From Pirellulales bacterium (GTDB taxonomy: Bacteria > Planctomycetota > Planctomycetia > Pirellulales > PALSA-1355): a stretch of 64,000 nucleotides of DNA. A program made the position numbers. The stretch is taken from assembly GCA_963733035.1 (NCBI GenBank), contig CAVTBU010000006.1, positions 224,001 through 288,000 on the forward strand, in the 5' to 3' direction. Position 1 is the first letter of the stretch; the number at the start of each line of letters is the position of its first letter. This document shows, piece by piece, positions 15,001 through 48,000 of this stretch.

Positions 15001-18000
15001 ACGGAAAGCCAAATAAGGTGATTGCTTCTTTTAACAAGGCCATCAAGGGAATCGTCCCCAAGGGCACGAAGCCTCTCTCATCAATGGACGAGATCATGGC
15101 TGCAGGAGCCAAGCATATGAGGCACTCCCGCTTCAAGCTGTTGGCCGCAGGCGCGGTCATCTCCGGTGTTCTTGGCGAGGTAATCAACCAGCAAGTGAAT
15201 GTCTTGGATGTGGCCGCGAACAGCGGTCATTATCGCCGCGCGCTAAAGGCCCTTGAAGAGGGCGACCTAAGTAAAGCGCATAGCCTACTCATCGGCGATG
15301 GCAATAGCTTGTATCACGAGATACTCGGCCAGGTCGGTGCTCACGCTGCCCTGAATTTCAAGAAGGCTATGGAACGCGTATTCGAGATGGCAAGAAATCA
15401 AGACTATAGGTGAAGACTTTGCACCGTTGCCATAGCGTCGCTCGAAGCACAACTCACGGCATAACTCAATCAGGCGCTCTAATGACTTTCGTCCAGACTC
15501 AGCAAGACTCGCCCGATATGAGTCGCCAGCAACGAGTGGCCCGAACTTTCATCGCATGAGTGGCCTGCGGTATGCCAGCGGCTGCGTGGCCCGTCCACAA
15601 CGAGCCAACCCGGCTTGCCTAGGCGCAATGCGCGCGCCAGTGCAATCAATCGCTGAGGATATCCCAGCTCCTGAGAAAACTCAGCCACTAGCGTAATGGT
15701 CACCGAATCACAGTCCTGAAACGAAGATGGAGGCATCAAATGATCAAACTCATTGGAATGCTCAGCAATCGACACTTCCGAGATCATTCCAAGATTTCTC
15801 ATCTCCCAATAGCAGTGGACTGCATAGACATCGTCGGGAGGTCGATCACAGAGATCGTTTGAAAAGAGGCACAACGTTACACTCCCCACCATTCCGACTC
15901 CGACATCGTAGCCATGATAAGCTGTCGAGTCGTTCATACGGTACCTGATCAGCCACACCTCTTTCGGCTCGCGTGTGGGCGGCCAAGCCACTGTTCGGTG
16001 ATCGACAATTTTCAGTTCGTCGGGCGCACGGCCGAGCTCGTTCGGATGGGCGAGCCAATCGGCGAAGGCCGCCATGGCTTGGAAGTTCGGCAATTGGCAC
16101 TCGGAAGGAATGTAACCGCCCTGTTCGAGATCTCTGAGGCACTGTTGTGCTCGGGCAGAATACCTCGCATCACGACAACATCGCGTCAGCCACGCGAATC
16201 CAGCTTGGCGACCTAGTTTGGCCGCTGCATGCGCGCAGCCATTTGCACATCAAGGTCCACATGGTCTAAGGCTAAGGCCATAAGCGCATCTCGCCCGGAG
16301 GTACGAAGATACGGCAACGCCACGGCTGCACTTTGTGCATAGCTGACGTGCTCGCTGTCGGTCAACCACTTCTCAAGTTGTTCAATCCCTTTTGGTGTAT
16401 CAAATGGATGTGCACTGCAAACTCCGTCGCGACACGCGCTATTAGAACAATCGAGGAGGGCCACGGCGAGAAAGCCTGTCGGCCGTAAGTTGCTCAATTT
16501 AACGAGCAGGCGTTTGCGTTCCGGATGATCGTTTTCATACCGTGCGAGTATGACGCTCCATAGGCTTGAATCTGGCGCAAAAGCCTTTCGTGCCGCTCGT
16601 ATCACCGCATCGGTACCCTCGCGCGTACAATACATCGCCAACACGTCCAGGGCGAACAATACGTCGTCGGCCGGGTGGTGGGCCGGTGTACGCAAGCCTT
16701 CGTCGACCACTTTCAGTAGAAGGTCGCCCCCCTGCTTCGCAAGGATTGCGAAGGCGGGACACTCGGCGCTCTCAACCAAATCAAACAAGTGAATTAGTGA
16801 ACTCAGTGCAGACCGGTTCACATCCATTGGAGGCAGATCCAAAATCCACTCCAGGACATGGCAAATAGCTTCCGCGTCAATACGCGACTTGATAGGTTGC
16901 TCGCCCAGCTTCCACAGTTCGTCACTGACGCTTGCACCATGCTCCATTCCGCGTCTCAGTGCTAAAATCAGAGGCGTGTGTGTTGAGAAGTCGTCGAATC
17001 TCATCATCGGTCGGTCACCAAATCCAAATCTTCTGCCCAACTTAATGCTAGCCGAATATGTCGGGTCCATCAGCAGTCAGAGAGCTCAACGCATATCTCG
17101 ACCTGGCTCGAACCGGCAAGATTTTCAGATTTCCCCATGAACCCACGAAACCCTTCCGGCGTCTAAGGTGTCGACAGGGTCGAGGCCGTGTTGGCGTCCG
17201 ACTGCAGTTGTGACAAGCTTTTACGGGTTGTTCCTTCCATGATGTTCTTACGGCCAAGACTGTTCCAAGAACACGTAGCCGGGAGTTATTGCGCAGCACA
17301 AACGATTGCTGCAAGGTAATTCCCCCGCGCTACCGCTACGCTTGTGACGCTTGGCCTTTAGGTCTGCTGGCTGCCAAAGCCCGATGTCACAAGGACATCG
17401 GGCTTTTTTGTTAGCCTCATGTCGCGCGACAGCGGGAACCAAACAACAAACGAATGGGTCGGTAGCTGAGACGGTTTAGCGGTGGCCTGAAAAGCCGCAG
17501 ACGAGGATTCGAGCGCCTCCCGACCCACTGCGCTCTGCGTGCGCGCTGACGGAGAACACTCACGGCTCGTTCGTCTATCGGTTCAGGATACTGCCCTTTC
17601 AAGGCGGAGAGGTGGGTTCGATTCCCACACGAGCTACTGAAGCAACAAAATCATCGGGCTGAAGAGGGACGGCGCCTCGCGTGCCTTGGGAGCACGAGAC
17701 AGTCGGTTCGACTCCGACCTGCCCGACTTGCGTGACGGTAGTTGAGGGCTGGTTGCCCAAACCCGGCTGATAACCAGGTGGCGCTGAGTTCGATTCTCAG
17801 AACTACCACTGAACGAGAGATCACAAGAAGGAGAAACGACGTTGGCAACTCGCATGCGACTCAAACGCATACGCCCACTCCACATTCGGGGTCGTGGCGT
17901 AACGGCAGCGCTTCCGCCTTTTAAGCGGGAAGGTAAGGGTTCGACTCCCTTCGGCCCCACTGCGTTGGCTTCGGCCAGCGATCGCGGCGGCGCGTAGCTC

Positions 18001-45000: not shown

Positions 45001-48000
45001 CGGATGTGGGACCGACGTTTCGCTTCGCCCCCAACGGCATTTTATTTGTGAACTAACTCGGTGGCTCGAACGTCCTATCAGTTCATGTACCGAGAGGAGG
45101 CAATTCCAATGAACATCTTCATCATCAAGACAATCAAGATCCGCAGCTACGAAATGGGTCTGTACTTCCGCGACCGCGAGTTCAAGGGCTTGCTCGGCGA
45201 AGGTCGCCACTGGTTCATAGACCCGCTGGGCAAGGTCAATGTTGAAGTCGTCTCGCGGCGTGCGCCGTGGCTCGCGCACGAGAAGCTCGACGTGATCTCG
45301 CGCTCGGGTGCGCTCAAGGACCGCGCGGTGGTGTTGGACCTGAAGGACTACGAACGGGCTCTGGTCTGGATCGAGGGTCGCTTCAGCCACATCCTGCCGC
45401 CGGGCCTGTACGCCTACTGGACGGCGCTGCGTGACGTAAAGGTCGAGGTGGTCGATGCGCGGCATGTGCGCTTCGAGCACCCGGACCTGAAAGTCATCGT
45501 GCAGTCGCCGCTGGTCGAGCGCGTGCTGGAGCTGGCCACCGTGCAGGCGCACCACGTGGGCGTGCTGTTCATCGACGGCGACTTCGTTGAGACGTTGCCG
45601 CCGGGCCGCTACGCCTTCTGGAAGAACATGGCCCAGGTCAAGTTCGTCGAGGAGGATATGCGGGAGGCGATGTTCGACGTGGCCGGCCAGGACATTATGA
45701 CGGCCGATAAGGTGACGCTGCGGATGAACGCGGTCGTCACGTATCGCGTCGCCGATGCCCGGACGGCTGTGAGCACGGTGGACGACGTGCGGCAGGCCTT
45801 GTACCGCGAGGCCCAATTGGCGCTGCGTGCCGTGGTGGGTGCCCGCGAGCTCGACACGTTCTTGATGGAGAAGGACGGCGTGGCGAGCGAGTTGGCCGAC
45901 ATGGTGCGTGCGCGTGCCAAGACCTTGGGCGTGGAGCTGATTGCCGTGGGTATCCGCGACATCATCCTGCCGGGCGAAATGAAGGATCTGATGAACCGCG
46001 TCACGGAGGCCAAGAAGGCCGCCGAGGCCAACCTCATCGCTCGCCGCGAGGAAACGGCCGCCATGCGCAGCCAAGTCAACACCGCCAAGCTGCTAGCCGA
46101 CAACCCGACCCTGATGCGCCTCCGCGAGCTGGAGGTCCTGGAAAAGGTTGCCGCCAACTCGAAGCTCAACATTGTGTTGGGCGAAAAGCGGTTGACCGAG
46201 CGGATCGTCAATGTGCTGTAGCAAGAAGCCCCGAGGGCTGGACGCGAGTCCCGCCCTCGGGATTATTCTATTGAGCAAGCGGATCCTCGGCAGCCTCAAA
46301 CACCGAAGATCGGCAATTGCAGCTTCTCTTGCAGCTCTGCCCGCACTTTCCCGCCTAGCAGGAACCGGACGAAATCGCCGGCTTCAAGCAACCGGATATC
46401 AGCCGCATCCGCTTCCCGCCGCGCCTCGTCGGTGAAGCCGAACACTGACACAAAGCAAAACCGGCCGATGCCCAGCCTTTCGAAATCGTGCTCAATCTCC
46501 GCCCAGCCGACCGGCTGGTTTTGGTACCGCTTTACTTGCACCCGCCACACCTCCTCGCCCAGCTCGCCGTGATCGAACCGCGCTTCGACATCGATGATGG
46601 GCTGATTCTTGCCCACCCGCCGTTCATCCACCACCGCGCCTTGCGCTTCAAGTAGTCGACGACGAGCCACTCCCAATCCTTGTCGTTGAGCGCCTCCGAG
46701 CGCCGGATGATGAGCGTTTGCAGCCGATGGTAGGCATCCTGCACGTCCTTGTCCGGCGCGGCGATAAGGTTCGGCGACTGGCCGCGCACGATTTGATCGA
46801 CAATGTCGAACGCCTCGGCGATTTCCCAGAACGACATCCTCGGCCCGAGCAAGCTGCCCTTGAGCCGCCCGTAGAAATCGAGAATCTTGATCGCAGGCAC
46901 CGGGTACTCGACGCGGCGGTAGTGCCAGATATCGGTCTGGTCCTCAAGCTCGAAATCACGATACAGCGAGTCAGACGCGACGCGGCAGATTTGCACGCAT
47001 TTCCCAATCGGGTTGTAGTAGAGAATGTAGTCGCCCGCCGCGCATTCGCGTCCGAAGCGGAATAGCTGTCCGGTGCCTACCCCTACCTCGCGGTCTTGCT
47101 TGTAGAACGCGCACACGCTTTTCACATGCGACCACAACTCGTCACGCGTTCCGCTCGCAAGCAGCTTCGGATCAACGTCCTGCCAGCCGACGCCGACGAT
47201 GCCGTGCCGCCGGCAGAACTCAACGCAAATCCCGCCCGAACCGAGCTTGATTCCCCACACCCGCTGGCCCATGTCTCATCCCCAAAAAAGCTTCCCGAAT
47301 ACCACATCACCCGCCTTTCCACAACCGCCTGGGTTTTCGCGATGTCCGCCCGCACTGTTTCGTTCAACGCCAGGCCGCGGGCGACTATACTTGTACCACA
47401 CTCGCGCCATCACGAATCGCTCGTTAGTGACATGACGAAAATCGAACTGTACCTCCTGAACCTTGCGGGCGAATATCGCGTTTGCAGCGAGCTCAATAAG
47501 CGCGGCGTGTTCGCCACCATCACGTATGGCAACCGCAAGGGCGTCGATATCTACGCCATCAGCGATGCAAAGAATCGCGCACTGAAGATCGAGGTTAAAA
47601 CAAGCCAGCACGGCCGCTTCGTCACCGGCATCTCCCAGAAATGCCTGGAGGACAGCCCGCACGCCCCGGATTTCTGGGTCTTGTGCGACATCAAGGCGGG
47701 CGACACTGACGCATTCACCGAGCGGTTCTTCATCCTATCCCACCGCACCATCTGCCGCATCCAGAAGGCGCGCAACCAGAAATACGCCGACAAGTACACT
47801 GCCAAGCACGGTAAGGCCCCCGACCTCGCCGGCGGCGTCGACAACGTAATGATCGCCGACGTGGAGAAGTTTGAGGACAAGTGGTCGAGCATTGTCAAGC
47901 GAGTCAGGAAGCCTATCACCTGACCGCGGCGAGCCAATCAAGATAGGTATCGCGAATTAGGTCACTCAGCCTCTTTGCCAAGGAGTTTTTTTACGAGTGC

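Follow-up and report, generated by a model that had tools for sequence, protein, structure and literature searches.

The stretch of DNA analysed here (the window) carries a tRNA gene array twice, in copies that have diverged and partly decayed. The array is, on balance, probably a self-contained mobile module (an "L-array"): its leucine tRNAs lacking the long arm would be charged by LeuRS, and an attenuator would control its use as a back-up under stress. The window spans 64,000 nt, positions 224,001-288,000 of the forward strand of contig CAVTBU010000006.1 from the Pirellulales bacterium GCA_963733035.1 (GTDB lineage Bacteria; Planctomycetota; Planctomycetia; Pirellulales; PALSA-1355); coordinates refer to the window and features lie on its + strand unless stated. 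An intact module would consist of a leader ORF, a terminator, about 37-41 tRNA genes running from Phe to Cys, and an HNH gene between His and Trp. The tRNA module is common in this order and is carried here by a tyrosine-integrase island at tRNA-Glu(CUC); two copies of this island, both damaged and diverged from each other, lie on either side of a kdp operon.

Island copy 1 (17121..29386) was delimited by self-blastn blocks and by the alignment of 29330-29445 with 54030-54145. It comprises a leader, tRNA array 1, an IS110 element, cargo ORFs and a truncated SPFH gene, together with what is left of the 3′ end of the integrase gene and of the att site in tRNA-Glu; BrxL, the primase and the bulk of the integrase have been lost. 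Island copy 2 (37827..54089) comprises a leader, the truncated array 2, IS110, the HNH gene, cargo, SPFH, PDC-S02-like and BrxL-like genes, a split primase/helicase, the tyrosine integrase gene (52747..53973) and an att site within tRNA-Glu. The integration site is the chromosomal tRNA-Glu(CUC) gene (54065..54138, − strand; ARAGORN), whose 3′ 25 nt recur at 29362-29386. Both arrays are interrupted by copies of the IS110-family element, located at 22354..24164 in array 1 and at 39616-41426 in array 2 and sharing 99.9% identity.

According to ARAGORN, the + strand carries 44 tRNA genes between 17456 and 44483, 30 at 17456-27822 and 14 at 38190-44483, in agreement with the first-pass annotation. 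The core of array 1 (17456..21991), from Phe to Ala-GGC, holds 27 of these at a density of 5.9 per kb. Its tail (26180..27822) contains Arg-UCU (a doubtful call of 90 nt at 26180), a YbjN-like ORF, Arg-GCG, an ORF without assignment and Cys. The intact part of array 2 (38557..44483) reads Leu-GAG, Val, Ala, IS110, Arg-UCU, His, HNH, Trp, Thr, Arg-CCG, Arg-UCG, YbjN, Arg-GCG, HEPN AbiV and Cys. Among the 14 array 2 calls, three coincide with deletion or rearrangement junctions and seem to be broken genes: a "Cys" of 92 nt (38190), a Leu-CAG of 86 nt (38284) and an Ala-GGC of 89 nt (39265). Pro-UGG, copy 1 of Leu-GAG and both Arg-GCG genes (ARAGORN; 27121-27195 and 43642-43714) score under the Rfam threshold or have no Rfam match. 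Two further genes were not called by ARAGORN: a tRNA-Gly(GCC)-like gene (18295..18361; Rfam 34.7 bits) and a degenerate tRNA-like gene with a CAU anticodon and a C1xA72 mismatch (about 20891..20960), homologous to ARAGORN's Met(cat) in 10 other arrays. Because the latter had been missed, the earlier statement that the array has no tRNA-Met is true of the ARAGORN calls only. The array tRNAs are phage-type and share only 59-78% identity with the host's own isoacceptors.

Textbooks ascribe a long extra arm (class II) to all bacterial leucine tRNAs, and the chromosomal Leu genes of this host measure 83-87 nt. As had been claimed, four of the five array isoacceptors (UAA, UAG, CAA and GAG) lack this arm, with lengths of 73-77 nt; their variable regions measure 4-7 nt. 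They are tRNA-Leu(UAA) (75 nt; 20212..20286; ARAGORN and covariation), tRNA-Leu(UAG) (73 nt; 20296..20368), whose scaffold also occurs in phages, tRNA-Leu(CAA) (75 nt; 20540..20614), and tRNA-Leu(GAG) in two copies (77 nt, C33, at 20965..21041; 75 nt, at 38557..38631, ARAGORN). Only tRNA-Leu(CAG) (84 nt; 20791..20874), which carries A37, has the long arm. Rfam tRNA scores of the short genes are 39.7, 39.3, 49.2 and 43.9 bits, the last for copy 2 of Leu-GAG; the 77-nt Leu-GAG has no Rfam match even at E<=1. U33 is near-universal in tRNAs, and the C33 found in 24 of 25 distinct array Leu-GAG sequences may impair decoding.

By plain alignment, the closest chromosomal tRNA is a leucine tRNA for only some of the short genes. 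The four arm-less isoacceptors retain A73, U8, A14-A15, G18-G19, U48 and the 3-bp D stem, and across arrays U8, A14, A15, GG, U48 and A73 are all present in 22/24 UAA, 26/28 CAA and 24/26 GAG sequences. Array Ser and Tyr tRNAs retain their long arms, and bacterial TyrRS makes use of that of tRNA-Tyr. According to PMC9976931, A73, A15-U48, G18G19 and A20a are required by the LeuRS of E. coli, which can dispense with the long arm, whereas SerRS depends on it. The retention of elements that LeuRS requires, together with the dispensability of the arm for the E. coli enzyme, suggests that the arm-less genes specify real leucine tRNAs, which would be charged by the one LeuRS encoded in the host genome.

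Gene order and short Leu genes are kept in 29 of 29 non-self loci, and 35 other genomes in total carry them, extending the conservation noted at first. The four isoacceptors are short in every array examined. Counting the window's own copy, the distinct sequences measure 74-77 nt for UAA (24 sequences), 74-79 nt for GAG (26), 73-76 nt for UAG (22 of 24) and 74-80 nt for CAA (29 of 30), with Leu-CAG at 83-89 nt (24). The compensatory stem changes also stand. In the cloverleaf of Leu-UAA 97.2% of cells are paired with 9 double-change pairs, and in that of Leu-GAG 99.6% with 8; none of 500 shuffles equalled either value. Double-change pairs number 3 in Leu-UAG and 10 in Leu-CAA. A survey of the UAG-type scaffold in 121 loci from species-representative genomes yielded 125 copies, all with a leucine anticodon (TAG 75, CAG 39, CAA 9, GAG 1, TAA 1) and A37; they present 39 distinct anticodon stems, and 105 copies are fully paired. 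Together, the same short forms in 35 other genomes, the compensatory changes and the leucine-only anticodons show the array genes to be under purifying selection, and the view of the array as a conserved, horizontally moving unit is upheld. The arm-less scaffold is spread across Planctomycetota, IMG/VR viral contigs and isolated phages. All five Leu genes of IMG/VR contig L054 measure 74-75 nt, and L053 has one short Leu amid long ones. Short tRNA-Leu genes also occur in Microbacterium phage Zooman (74, 75 and 75+CCA nt), Aeromonas phage 4_4572 (74+CCA nt) and Mycobacterium phage Wildcat (annotated as 74 and 73 nt; 75 and 74 by ARAGORN, including one base past A73). The arm-less type thus also exists in phages of other phyla, and is neither special to Pirellulales nor invented by this element.

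Every full array opens with a conserved leader ORF running to a fixed TGA, followed by an intrinsic terminator. Among 27 distinct leaders, an ATG-ORF of 30-60 aa reaches the common TGA in 24, and in 25 this frame contains no stop over 36 codons or more. Some of the variation at conserved residues is synonymous, and pairwise differences by codon position amount to 296, 356 and 487. The ORF is rich in rare codons (TTA accounts for 2% of Leu codons and ATA for 4% of Ile codons), and its CAI-like value of 0.504 ranks among the lowest 1.8% when set against 5000 random windows of 36 codons. In the window, leader ORF copy 1 (17239..17319) is frameshifted and stops at a TAA after 26 aa; at 17312-17347 the C-terminal part of the ancestral frame (QGNSPALPLRL, stop) can still be read. 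A conserved motif that includes the ancestral stop (17341..17350; TGA at 17345-17347) is the proposed antiterminator strand, and the terminator hairpin with its T run (17377..17409; 13-bp stem) lies 47 nt 5′ of tRNA-Phe. Leader copy 2 (37946..38143) has a frameshifted ORF at 37946-38020, the TGA motif at 38073-38082 and the terminator at 38110-38143. Within the order, 53 of 201 genomes have matches to the leader DNA; in the rest of the phylum, a strict pattern finds it in 1-2 of 300 genomes. Being nearly confined to the order, the leader cannot account for arrays elsewhere. It matches no Rfam family at E<=1.

Leader and terminator look like a ribosome-dependent attenuator, through which faltering translation would turn the array on. 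Transcription would enter the array via the leader. A ribosome reading the rare-codon-rich ORF to the fixed UGA would cover a strand that might otherwise base-pair with the terminator's 5′ arm, so that the terminator would form and the array stay off. Should ribosomes stall or fail to load, upon tRNA depletion or cleavage, starvation or exposure to translation inhibitors, the strand would be free, the antiterminator would form and the back-up tRNA set would be made. In line with this model, the stop motif is complementary to the terminator 5′ arm and loop (91.7% of cells are paired, compared with 30-50% once the motif is slid), and for several leaders RNAfold gives this alternative fold as the optimum. 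A possible but rather unlikely alternative is that the ORF encodes a small protein or nothing, transcripts end at the hairpin and the array is expressed from internal promoters. The antiterminator pairing does lack covariation support (2 double-change pairs, equalled by 71 of 500 shuffles, and a percentage paired equal to that of shuffles); its columns hardly vary, and these bases also code for the conserved peptide end (LRL, stop), for which alone the motif may have been kept. In addition, no promoter is mapped, a search for a sigma-70-like one having found none. Against this alternative, the terminator, paired in 27/27 leaders, lies 5-51 nt from tRNA-Phe, just 5-19 nt in four genomes, leaving no space for a promoter in several genomes; the stop codon precedes the terminator by a fixed 29-38 nt; and in the loci examined the ORF-terminator unit is without exception attached to an array or to what remains of one. 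The L-array of Anabaena, described in PMC8421152 as silent and induced by translational stress, is a precedent for a stress-induced array. The conserved leader ORF and terminator lend the back-up role indirect support.

The array had previously been read as stripped of the class II arm, m1G37 (TrmD), lysidine (TilS) and inosine (TadA), possibly as a back-up against tRNA-targeting toxins. That it is mainly a decoy-proof set of this kind, arm loss and A37/C33 changes stripping nuclease recognition features, we consider unlikely. The change from chromosomal G37 to array A37 was borne out for all six isoacceptors and holds across arrays (Leu-CAG 22/23, Leu-GAG 25/25, Leu-UAG 22/23, His 20/20, Gln-UUG 25/25, Arg-UCG 10/12), and Ile-UAU (17988..18061; ARAGORN; Rfam 67.2 bits; 20 distinct homologues in other arrays) and Arg-GCG are likewise conserved. 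C33 occurs in many array tRNAs, the arm-less type is carried by phages, phage tRNAs are reported to escape anticodon nucleases by loop changes (PMC10264068), and bacterial Schlafen nucleases act in anti-phage defence (PMC13056530). Independence from TrmD, however, is contradicted by the array Pro tRNAs, which keep G37 (distinct sequences: CGG 20/24, GGG 5/5, UGG 15/16). CCA is encoded in none of the 44 array genes, so host enzymes are still required. The description "stripped-down" fits the missing Leu arm, A37, Ile-UAU and Arg-GCG, but not the Pro G37, the Ser and Tyr arms or the CCA ends, and the set is therefore not host-independent. Moreover, A37 is ordinary in Arg, His and Gln tRNAs of other bacteria, and in those of the array it may be a mere mark of foreign origin. 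No bacterial nuclease recognising the Leu arm is known from the literature consulted, and this genome (92% complete) has no SLFN_AlbA_2 domain. The HEPN/AbiV, cREC and YbjN genes that lie within the window's arrays have no counterparts in the arrays at the 20 loci searched in relatives; the HEPN/AbiV gene of array 2 is thus not conserved with arrays elsewhere.

The HNH endonuclease gene between tRNA-His and tRNA-Trp of array 2 (41648..42244; Pfam HNH; phrog_16726 at 5.4e-35) matches phage HNH families. By tblastn it has 50-97% identity matches in 10 of 20 relatives' 20-kb loci, an eleventh showing one 23-aa fragment, and is a conserved member of the module. Its position recalls SegB in the T4 tRNA cluster (PMC2330249). 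Such a homing-type gene would suit arrays that are selfish or neutral passengers, phage tRNA-cluster relics spread by HNH and islands, mostly silent and decaying, without benefit to the cell; the Leu arm, dispensable for LeuRS, would have disappeared as phage genomes were neutrally streamlined. This view we regard as doubtful. Local decay fits: frameshifted leader ORFs, IS110 in both arrays, and several degenerate, broken or missing members suggest that the window's copies, one without an integrase, may be deregulated, on the way to decay or silent relics. The passenger view is also favoured by extra leader copies in other genomes that precede just 2-9 tRNAs, by the patchy spread of the leader, and by the variable region of Leu-CAA, which spans 5-10 nt across arrays as though the arm had eroded stepwise. 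Strong purifying selection on stems, identity elements and leucine-only anticodons over hundreds of copies speaks against passengers, as does the conserved regulatory leader, with its ORF in 24/27, which speaks for controlled use. Finally, it is improbable that the array tops up tRNAs for mobile-element or phage codons, the classical view of phage tRNAs: the near-complete set includes the rare-codon readers Leu-UAA, Ile-UAU and Arg-UCU, but it also duplicates abundant isoacceptors, and the island has few genes of its own.

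ARAGORN places 45 tRNA genes in the window, 44 of them on the + strand within 17456-44483 and one, tRNA-Glu(CUC), on the − strand at 54065-54138; the ten contigs of the genome yield 96 calls in all. The + strand calls form two groups, 30 up to 27822 and 14 from 38190, and self-comparison assigns them to two copies of one island (copy 1, 17121-29386; copy 2, 37827-54089); the first-pass annotation had described 44 tRNAs in two related arrays of a tRNA-Glu-linked island. In the core of array 1 (17456-21991), 27 tRNA genes are packed at 5.9 per kb. This segment is as dense as a tRNA array unit or L-array, which comprises at least 20 tRNA genes at no fewer than 2 per kb (Tran 2016; Santamaria-Gomez 2021). 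The calls at 38190, 38284 and 39265 are artefacts at rearrangement junctions, and that at 26180 is perhaps another; a Gly-GCC gene at 18295-18361 was overlooked by the program.

Four array leucine isoacceptors are devoid of the long variable arm. Leu-UAA (75 nt), Leu-UAG (73 nt, 20296-20368), Leu-CAA (75 nt) and Leu-GAG (77 and 75 nt) have variable regions of 4-7 nt in the drawn structures, short of the stemmed arm of at least 10 nt that marks class II. Among the array leucine tRNAs only Leu-CAG (84 nt) has such an arm, which is also present in the five chromosomal Leu genes (83-87 nt). The short genes score 39-49 bits against the Rfam tRNA model, the 77-nt copy of Leu-GAG giving no match even at E<=1. 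Short forms recur across 35 other genomes, and Leu-CAG is long in every one of these arrays. The cloverleaf pairs of the short tRNAs are kept through compensatory changes, as the first-pass annotation had claimed: 97.2% of cells are paired in Leu-UAA, with 9 double-change pairs and none of 500 shuffles scoring as high (23-46% paired when the partner strand is slid), and 99.6% in Leu-GAG, with 8 double-change pairs and again 0/500 shuffles. Leu-UAG and Leu-CAA show 3 and 10 double-change pairs, respectively.

The short tRNAs also retain what a leucyl-tRNA synthetase is expected to read. Excerpts of an identity review (PMC9976931) list U8, A14, A15, G18G19, U48 and A73 as read by the E. coli LeuRS; these positions, together with the 3-bp D stem, are kept in 22/24 Leu-UAA, 26/28 Leu-CAA and 24/26 Leu-GAG sequences, while the Leu-UAG body (the UAG-type scaffold) has the AA one position earlier by raw count. 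According to the same excerpts, LeuRS can do without the long arm and SerRS cannot. Consistent with this, a long arm is retained by the Ser genes of the array and also by Tyr genes in relatives. The strongest indirect test of leucine identity was a scan of species-representative genomes in which the UAG-type scaffold was specified but any anticodon allowed; at least 121 loci were recovered. Among the matches listed, 125/125 scaffold copies combined A37 with a leucine anticodon, and their anticodon stems were of 39 different kinds; therefore, several independent anticodon switches stayed within the leucine box. Such switches inside the Leu family are also seen at two array loci: a UAA-type body with a UAG anticodon and G37 (L045, 9123-9195, genome G198) and a UAG-type body with a CAA anticodon (L023, 1659-1732, genome G166). 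The genome has a single LeuRS gene, whose product presumably charges the short tRNAs with leucine. Plain alignment to the nearest chromosomal tRNA was indecisive on the descent of the short Leu genes.

By record titles, the scaffold matches listed (80 of at least 121 loci) belong to Pirellulales, Planctomycetales, Gemmatales, Isosphaerales, Kuenenia and Thermoguttaceae, with a few in Bacteroidota MAG contigs. Cultured array-bearing strains among the carriers include Singulisphaera acidiphila DSM 18658, Bremerella cremea JCM 17758 and a Stieleria strain. The scaffold also occurs in two IMG/VR contigs. One, of 226 kb and 100% complete by CheckV, has all five Leu isoacceptors at 74-75 nt; the other, 13% complete, has one short Leu among long ones. 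Terminase_6N and HK97 capsid matches were not found in these two records, the viral status of which is that given by IMG/VR and CheckV. In isolated phages, matches over the whole tRNA reach 78% and 77% in Microbacterium phages Zooman and Big4. Zooman encodes Leu-CAG of 74 nt, Leu-CAA of 75 nt and Leu-GAG of 75 nt plus CCA, and Aeromonas phage 4_4572 a Leu-UAG of 74 nt plus CCA; in Mycobacterium phage Wildcat, two tRNA-Leu are annotated at 74 and 73 nt, both with a 3-bp D stem, A37 and A73. Thus, the arm-less tRNA-Leu is a phage-borne type that several phyla share, and phage tRNA clusters are the most likely ancestors of the array. The clusters of Wildcat, Zooman, Aeromonas phage 4_4572 and T4 (with SegB) resemble it in combining clustered tRNAs with small ORFs and a homing-type endonuclease, and in carrying arm-less tRNA-Leu on the same scaffolds (77-83% identity) with A37 and A73. 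Unlike these clusters, the array is chromosomal and lies in an integrase island that lacks phage structural genes; CCA is encoded by two phage genes (Zooman Leu-GAG and Aeromonas phage Leu-UAG) but by none of the array.

Array tRNAs share 59-78% identity with the host's own tRNAs of the same isoacceptor. Leu-CAG, Leu-GAG, Leu-UAG, Arg-UCG, His and Gln-UUG have G37 on the chromosome and A37 in the array. Together with the arm-less leucine forms and the Ile-UAU and Arg-GCG anticodons, the A37 feature proved real and conserved across arrays. The broader claim attached to these features, namely a tRNA set independent of host functions, did not hold: all three array Pro genes retain G37, the long arms of the Ser and Tyr tRNAs persist, and the CCA end has to be added, being encoded by no tRNA gene of this genome, in the array or elsewhere.

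Seven kinds of block are common to the two island copies: the leader and Phe region (78% identity), Leu-CAG with the adjacent CAU gene, the Ala-Ala pair (98%), an IS110 element (99.9%), YbjN with Arg-GCG (93%), Cys with the 5' part of an SPFH gene (88.6%), and the integrase 3' end with 25 nt of the tRNA-Glu 3' end (90%). Copy 2 has lost the tRNAs from Phe to Glu-CUC, present in copy 1, and has retained the backbone, consisting of SPFH, a PDC-S02-like gene, a BrxL-like Lon protease, a split DUF3987 primase/helicase and a tyrosine integrase (52747-53973) that adjoins tRNA-Glu. Copy 1 is missing the stretch between mid-SPFH and the integrase 3' end. The 25 nt of the tRNA-Glu 3' end are repeated at 29362-29386, the right end of copy 1. 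Exact-word and 3-mismatch searches did not find a left-end att repeat; they returned only the right-end repeat (29368-29386) and a weak 3-mismatch site at 12004. A complete kdpABC-kdpD-kdpE operon (29650-37512, − strand) lies between the copies; it may be host DNA enclosed by two integration events or else cargo of the island. Within 48689-52597, the BrxL-like protease (PADLOC BrxL, 3.6e-221) is solitary, no further BREX genes being seen nearby, and the DUF3987 gene, which occupies two ORFs (50349-51707 and 51704-52597), is probably split by a frameshift.

Gaps between array tRNAs seem to serve as slots for cargo. In copy 1 only, Leu-GAG and Val are separated by an ORF (21070-21507, − strand) with a cREC_REC domain ("cyclic-phosphate processing receiver", Pfam 1.1e-10), a domain with a possible link to RNA repair; in copy 2 these two genes are 5 nt apart. 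The gap between Arg-GCG and Cys, which are adjacent in most relatives, holds a HEPN_AbiV gene in copy 2 (43748-44407, + strand) and an ORF in copy 1 (27196-27706, + strand) that is unrelated to it; the 220-aa ORF at this matching spot of array 1 shows no relationship to the HEPN protein. The YbjN-like, HEPN/AbiV and cREC ORFs and the IS110 element were not found in 20 relatives' stretches of up to 20 kb and are local insertions between tRNA genes. Pairing of the array with a resident toxin was rejected, as the YbjN-like, HEPN/AbiV and cREC proteins, and likewise the IS110 and Tox-REase proteins, gave no tblastn match in the 20-kb loci of the 20 relatives.

The array itself is a conserved module. 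Of 201 genomes sampled from the order, 120 give a match to its Leu region, though many matches are no larger than a single tRNA. The same tRNA order was found in all 29 non-self loci fetched, spanning many families; the first-pass annotation had asserted conservation of order and of short Leu for 8 other genomes. The full layout, drawn from 20 further stretches of up to 20 kb, reads Phe, Glu, Pro, Ile, Lys, Ile-UAU, Lys, Thr, Gly, Pro, Asn, Ser, Gly, Gln, Gln, Ser, Val, Leu-UAA, Leu-UAG, Asp, Leu-CAA, (Tyr), Glu, Leu-CAG, (CAU gene), Leu-GAG, Val, Thr, Ala, Ala, Ser, Arg, His, HNH ORF, Trp, Thr, Arg, Arg, Arg-GCG, Cys. For the product of the HNH ORF (41648-42244), 10/20 stretches give matches of 50-97% identity, and it also matches phage HNH families (phrog_16726, 5.4e-35). 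The flanks vary by genome, being ordinary chromosomal genes, a serine recombinase with ParB/RepB, a TraG-like gene or IS elements, and the contexts are chromosomal, ICE-like, plasmid-like or IS-rich. Since flanking genes differ between genomes, the array moves as a unit among contexts, which bears out the horizontal transfer proposed earlier; the patchy distribution with conserved order typical of L-arrays is seen here. Against plasmids, the array DNA gave single generic tRNA matches only.

Across distant arrays, the only conserved sequence upstream of tRNA-Phe, the first array gene, begins at a small ORF. An ATG-initiated ORF of 30-60 aa with the same TGA end is present in 24/27 distinct leaders, the exceptions being the two window copies and one other genome. 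The predicted peptide has an N-terminus resembling MMFLRPSSIQER and a C-terminal PLRL. In 25/27 leaders this frame stays open over 36 codons or more, and it is mostly longer than the two other frames; conserved residues are specified by synonymous codons, differences by codon position being 296, 356 and 487 (third position highest). Rare codons abound, among them TTA (2% of Leu codons) and ATA (4% of Ile codons), both conserved, at codons 4 and 13; only 1.8% of random windows have a CAI-like value this low. A GC-rich hairpin of 11-12 bp followed by a T run begins 29-38 nt after the stop, is paired in 27/27 leaders (100% of cells; 1/500 shuffles as high) and precedes tRNA-Phe by 5-51 nt. This intrinsic terminator lies between the leader and the array genes. 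Gaps of 5-19 nt are too short to hold a promoter of the array's own, and transcripts of the array should therefore traverse the terminator; a scan for sigma-70-like promoters returned 0 sites. The leader DNA occurs in 53/201 genomes of the order, extra copies heading small array remnants; among 300 genomes outside the order, a strict pattern detects it in 1-2. It has no match among Rfam families, and its terminator pattern had 0 matches in viral contigs, so that the leader sets the array apart from the phage clusters.

Bases around the leader stop show complementarity to the terminator's 5' arm and loop, with 91.7% of cells paired as compared to 30-50% when slid, and this alternative fold is the RNAfold optimum in several leaders. 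Covariation of the putative antiterminator was no better than in shuffles (71/500 as high) because its columns hardly vary. We read the leader as a predicted ribosome-dependent attenuator. Efficient translation up to the UGA would mask the antiterminator strand and keep the array off; stalled or absent ribosomes would let the antiterminator form and the array be transcribed. In the window, both leader ORFs (17239-17319 and 37946-38020) are frameshifted, the old C-terminal frame being still readable; under the attenuator model these copies may be deregulated and read through, or they may simply be decaying.

The predicted arrangement resembles trp/pheL-type attenuators and that of B. subtilis BmrCD (PMC4191407, in part), with a short leader ORF, an intrinsic terminator, mutually exclusive RNA pairings and output set by ribosome position. 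The known examples control an amino-acid operon or a drug pump, whereas here the targets would be tRNAs; the leader has two competing helices only, and a spread of rare codons rather than a run of one regulatory codon. As in the L-arrays of Tran 2016 and Santamaria-Gomez 2021, in the sections covered, dozens of dense tRNA genes are distributed patchily, as by horizontal transfer, and have diverged from the housekeeping set; Planctomycetes are among the phyla that those sections name as having tRNA arrays. The Anabaena L-array is described, in the portion of PMC8421152 covered, as silent until translation is impaired and as controlled by promoter repeats; the array studied here is preceded instead by the leader ORF and terminator. 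In the passages covered, neither L-array paper mentions arm-less tRNA-Leu. Animal mitochondrial and engineered E. coli tRNA-Leu lack the arm and are leucylated through A73 and A14 determinants (PMC9976931, excerpts), a property that the present forms would share; those are organellar or man-made, while these are a natural bacterial and phage type, beside class II tRNA-Leu in the same cell.

The first-pass annotation had suggested a back-up against tRNA-targeting toxins. Anticodon-loop changes in phage tRNAs provide a precedent for toxin escape (PMC10264068, in part), and the nuclease-evading phage tRNAs of this and a second paper (PMC11555353, likewise in part) resemble the array in being mobile and in having loops unlike the host's at 32, 33, 37 and 38. 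The array differs from them in a structural change of another kind, the loss of a whole arm, and has no known cognate nuclease; what is seen in it are sequence differences. Human SLFN11 is a nuclease that grips the Leu arm (PMC11615386); no Schlafen domain was found in this genome. A bolder combined reading strikes us as possible rather than probable: the arm-less tRNA-Leu would be a widespread, overlooked phage-borne bacterial class, a "universal-host" or nuclease-proof Leu adaptor, and the array a domesticated emergency set, its transcription controlled through a leader peptide acting as a sensor of tRNA supply. Cleavage or depletion of host tRNAs would stall ribosomes at the leader's rare codons, the terminator would be bypassed and a full replacement set made. 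If true, this would be the first tRNA operon under ribosome-mediated attenuation.

The finding is thus real and wider than first described. In textbooks and reviews, a long variable arm counts as an invariable hallmark of bacterial tRNA-Leu; hundreds of genomes, and isolated phages from two or more other phyla, nevertheless have a natural arm-less form that is under selection. L-arrays and phage tRNA clusters, the kinds to which the array belongs, are already known. Two features appear undescribed in the searchable literature, namely natural tRNA-Leu of bacteria or phages without the arm and the gating of a tRNA array by a leader ORF and terminator; no paper was found on the former in bacteria or phages, or on any tRNA array preceded by a leader peptide, in searches that reached neither subscription journals nor the supplementary files of PMC4758250 and PMC8421152. 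The short tRNA-Leu of Wildcat are publicly annotated and drew no comment in the literature reached. The arm-less forms offer a natural test of the arm's purpose, as discriminator among class II tRNAs or as a handle for nucleases, and ready-made compact leucine tRNA scaffolds. The conserved leader ORF and terminator make the idea of long arrays as a back-up under translational stress testable by reporter fusions in cultured Planctomycetota.

Some minor features of the arrays deserve mention. C33 replaces the near-universal U33 in several array tRNAs (window 20965-21041, 38557-38631, 18816-18890 and 21617-21688) and is kept across genomes; it was counted in 24/25 distinct sequences of Leu-GAG, 17/25 of Glu-CUC, 10/19 of Thr-CGU, 10/18 of Thr-GGU and 4/5 of Pro-GGG. 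The sole chromosomal tRNA-Val(GAC), outside the window (C5:2985074-2985148), has U32-C33 before G34, and its UCG motif is that of array Leu-GAG, Thr-GGU and Pro-GGG. A tRNA-like gene of 69-72 nt with a CAU anticodon lies between Leu-CAG and Leu-GAG (20891-20960 and 38405-38480; the former, at about these positions, was overlooked by ARAGORN) and is found as well in fetched loci L008, L017, L018, L020-L022, L024, L030, L046 and L048. It has an initiator-like C1xA72 mismatch with A73, a 2-bp D stem without GG and the T loop UGCGA; in the window both copies have degenerated, and their Tymo_tRNA-like matches are weak. Weak matches to the tRNA-Sec model (24-25 bits) at 20619-20706 and 41357-41436 are probably decayed remnants of the class II genes Tyr-GUA and Ser-GCU, which relatives have there. 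Directly 3' of tRNA-Cys, both copies carry a tRNA-like sequence (27971-28036 and 44633-44698) that matches the Rfam tRNA model at 51.1 bits over model positions 4-67 and has no pairable acceptor stem. Lastly, outside the order, one locus (L217, G375:C1:626413-629472) has a similar TGA motif and terminator before Gln-CUG and a 75-nt arm-less Leu-CAG.
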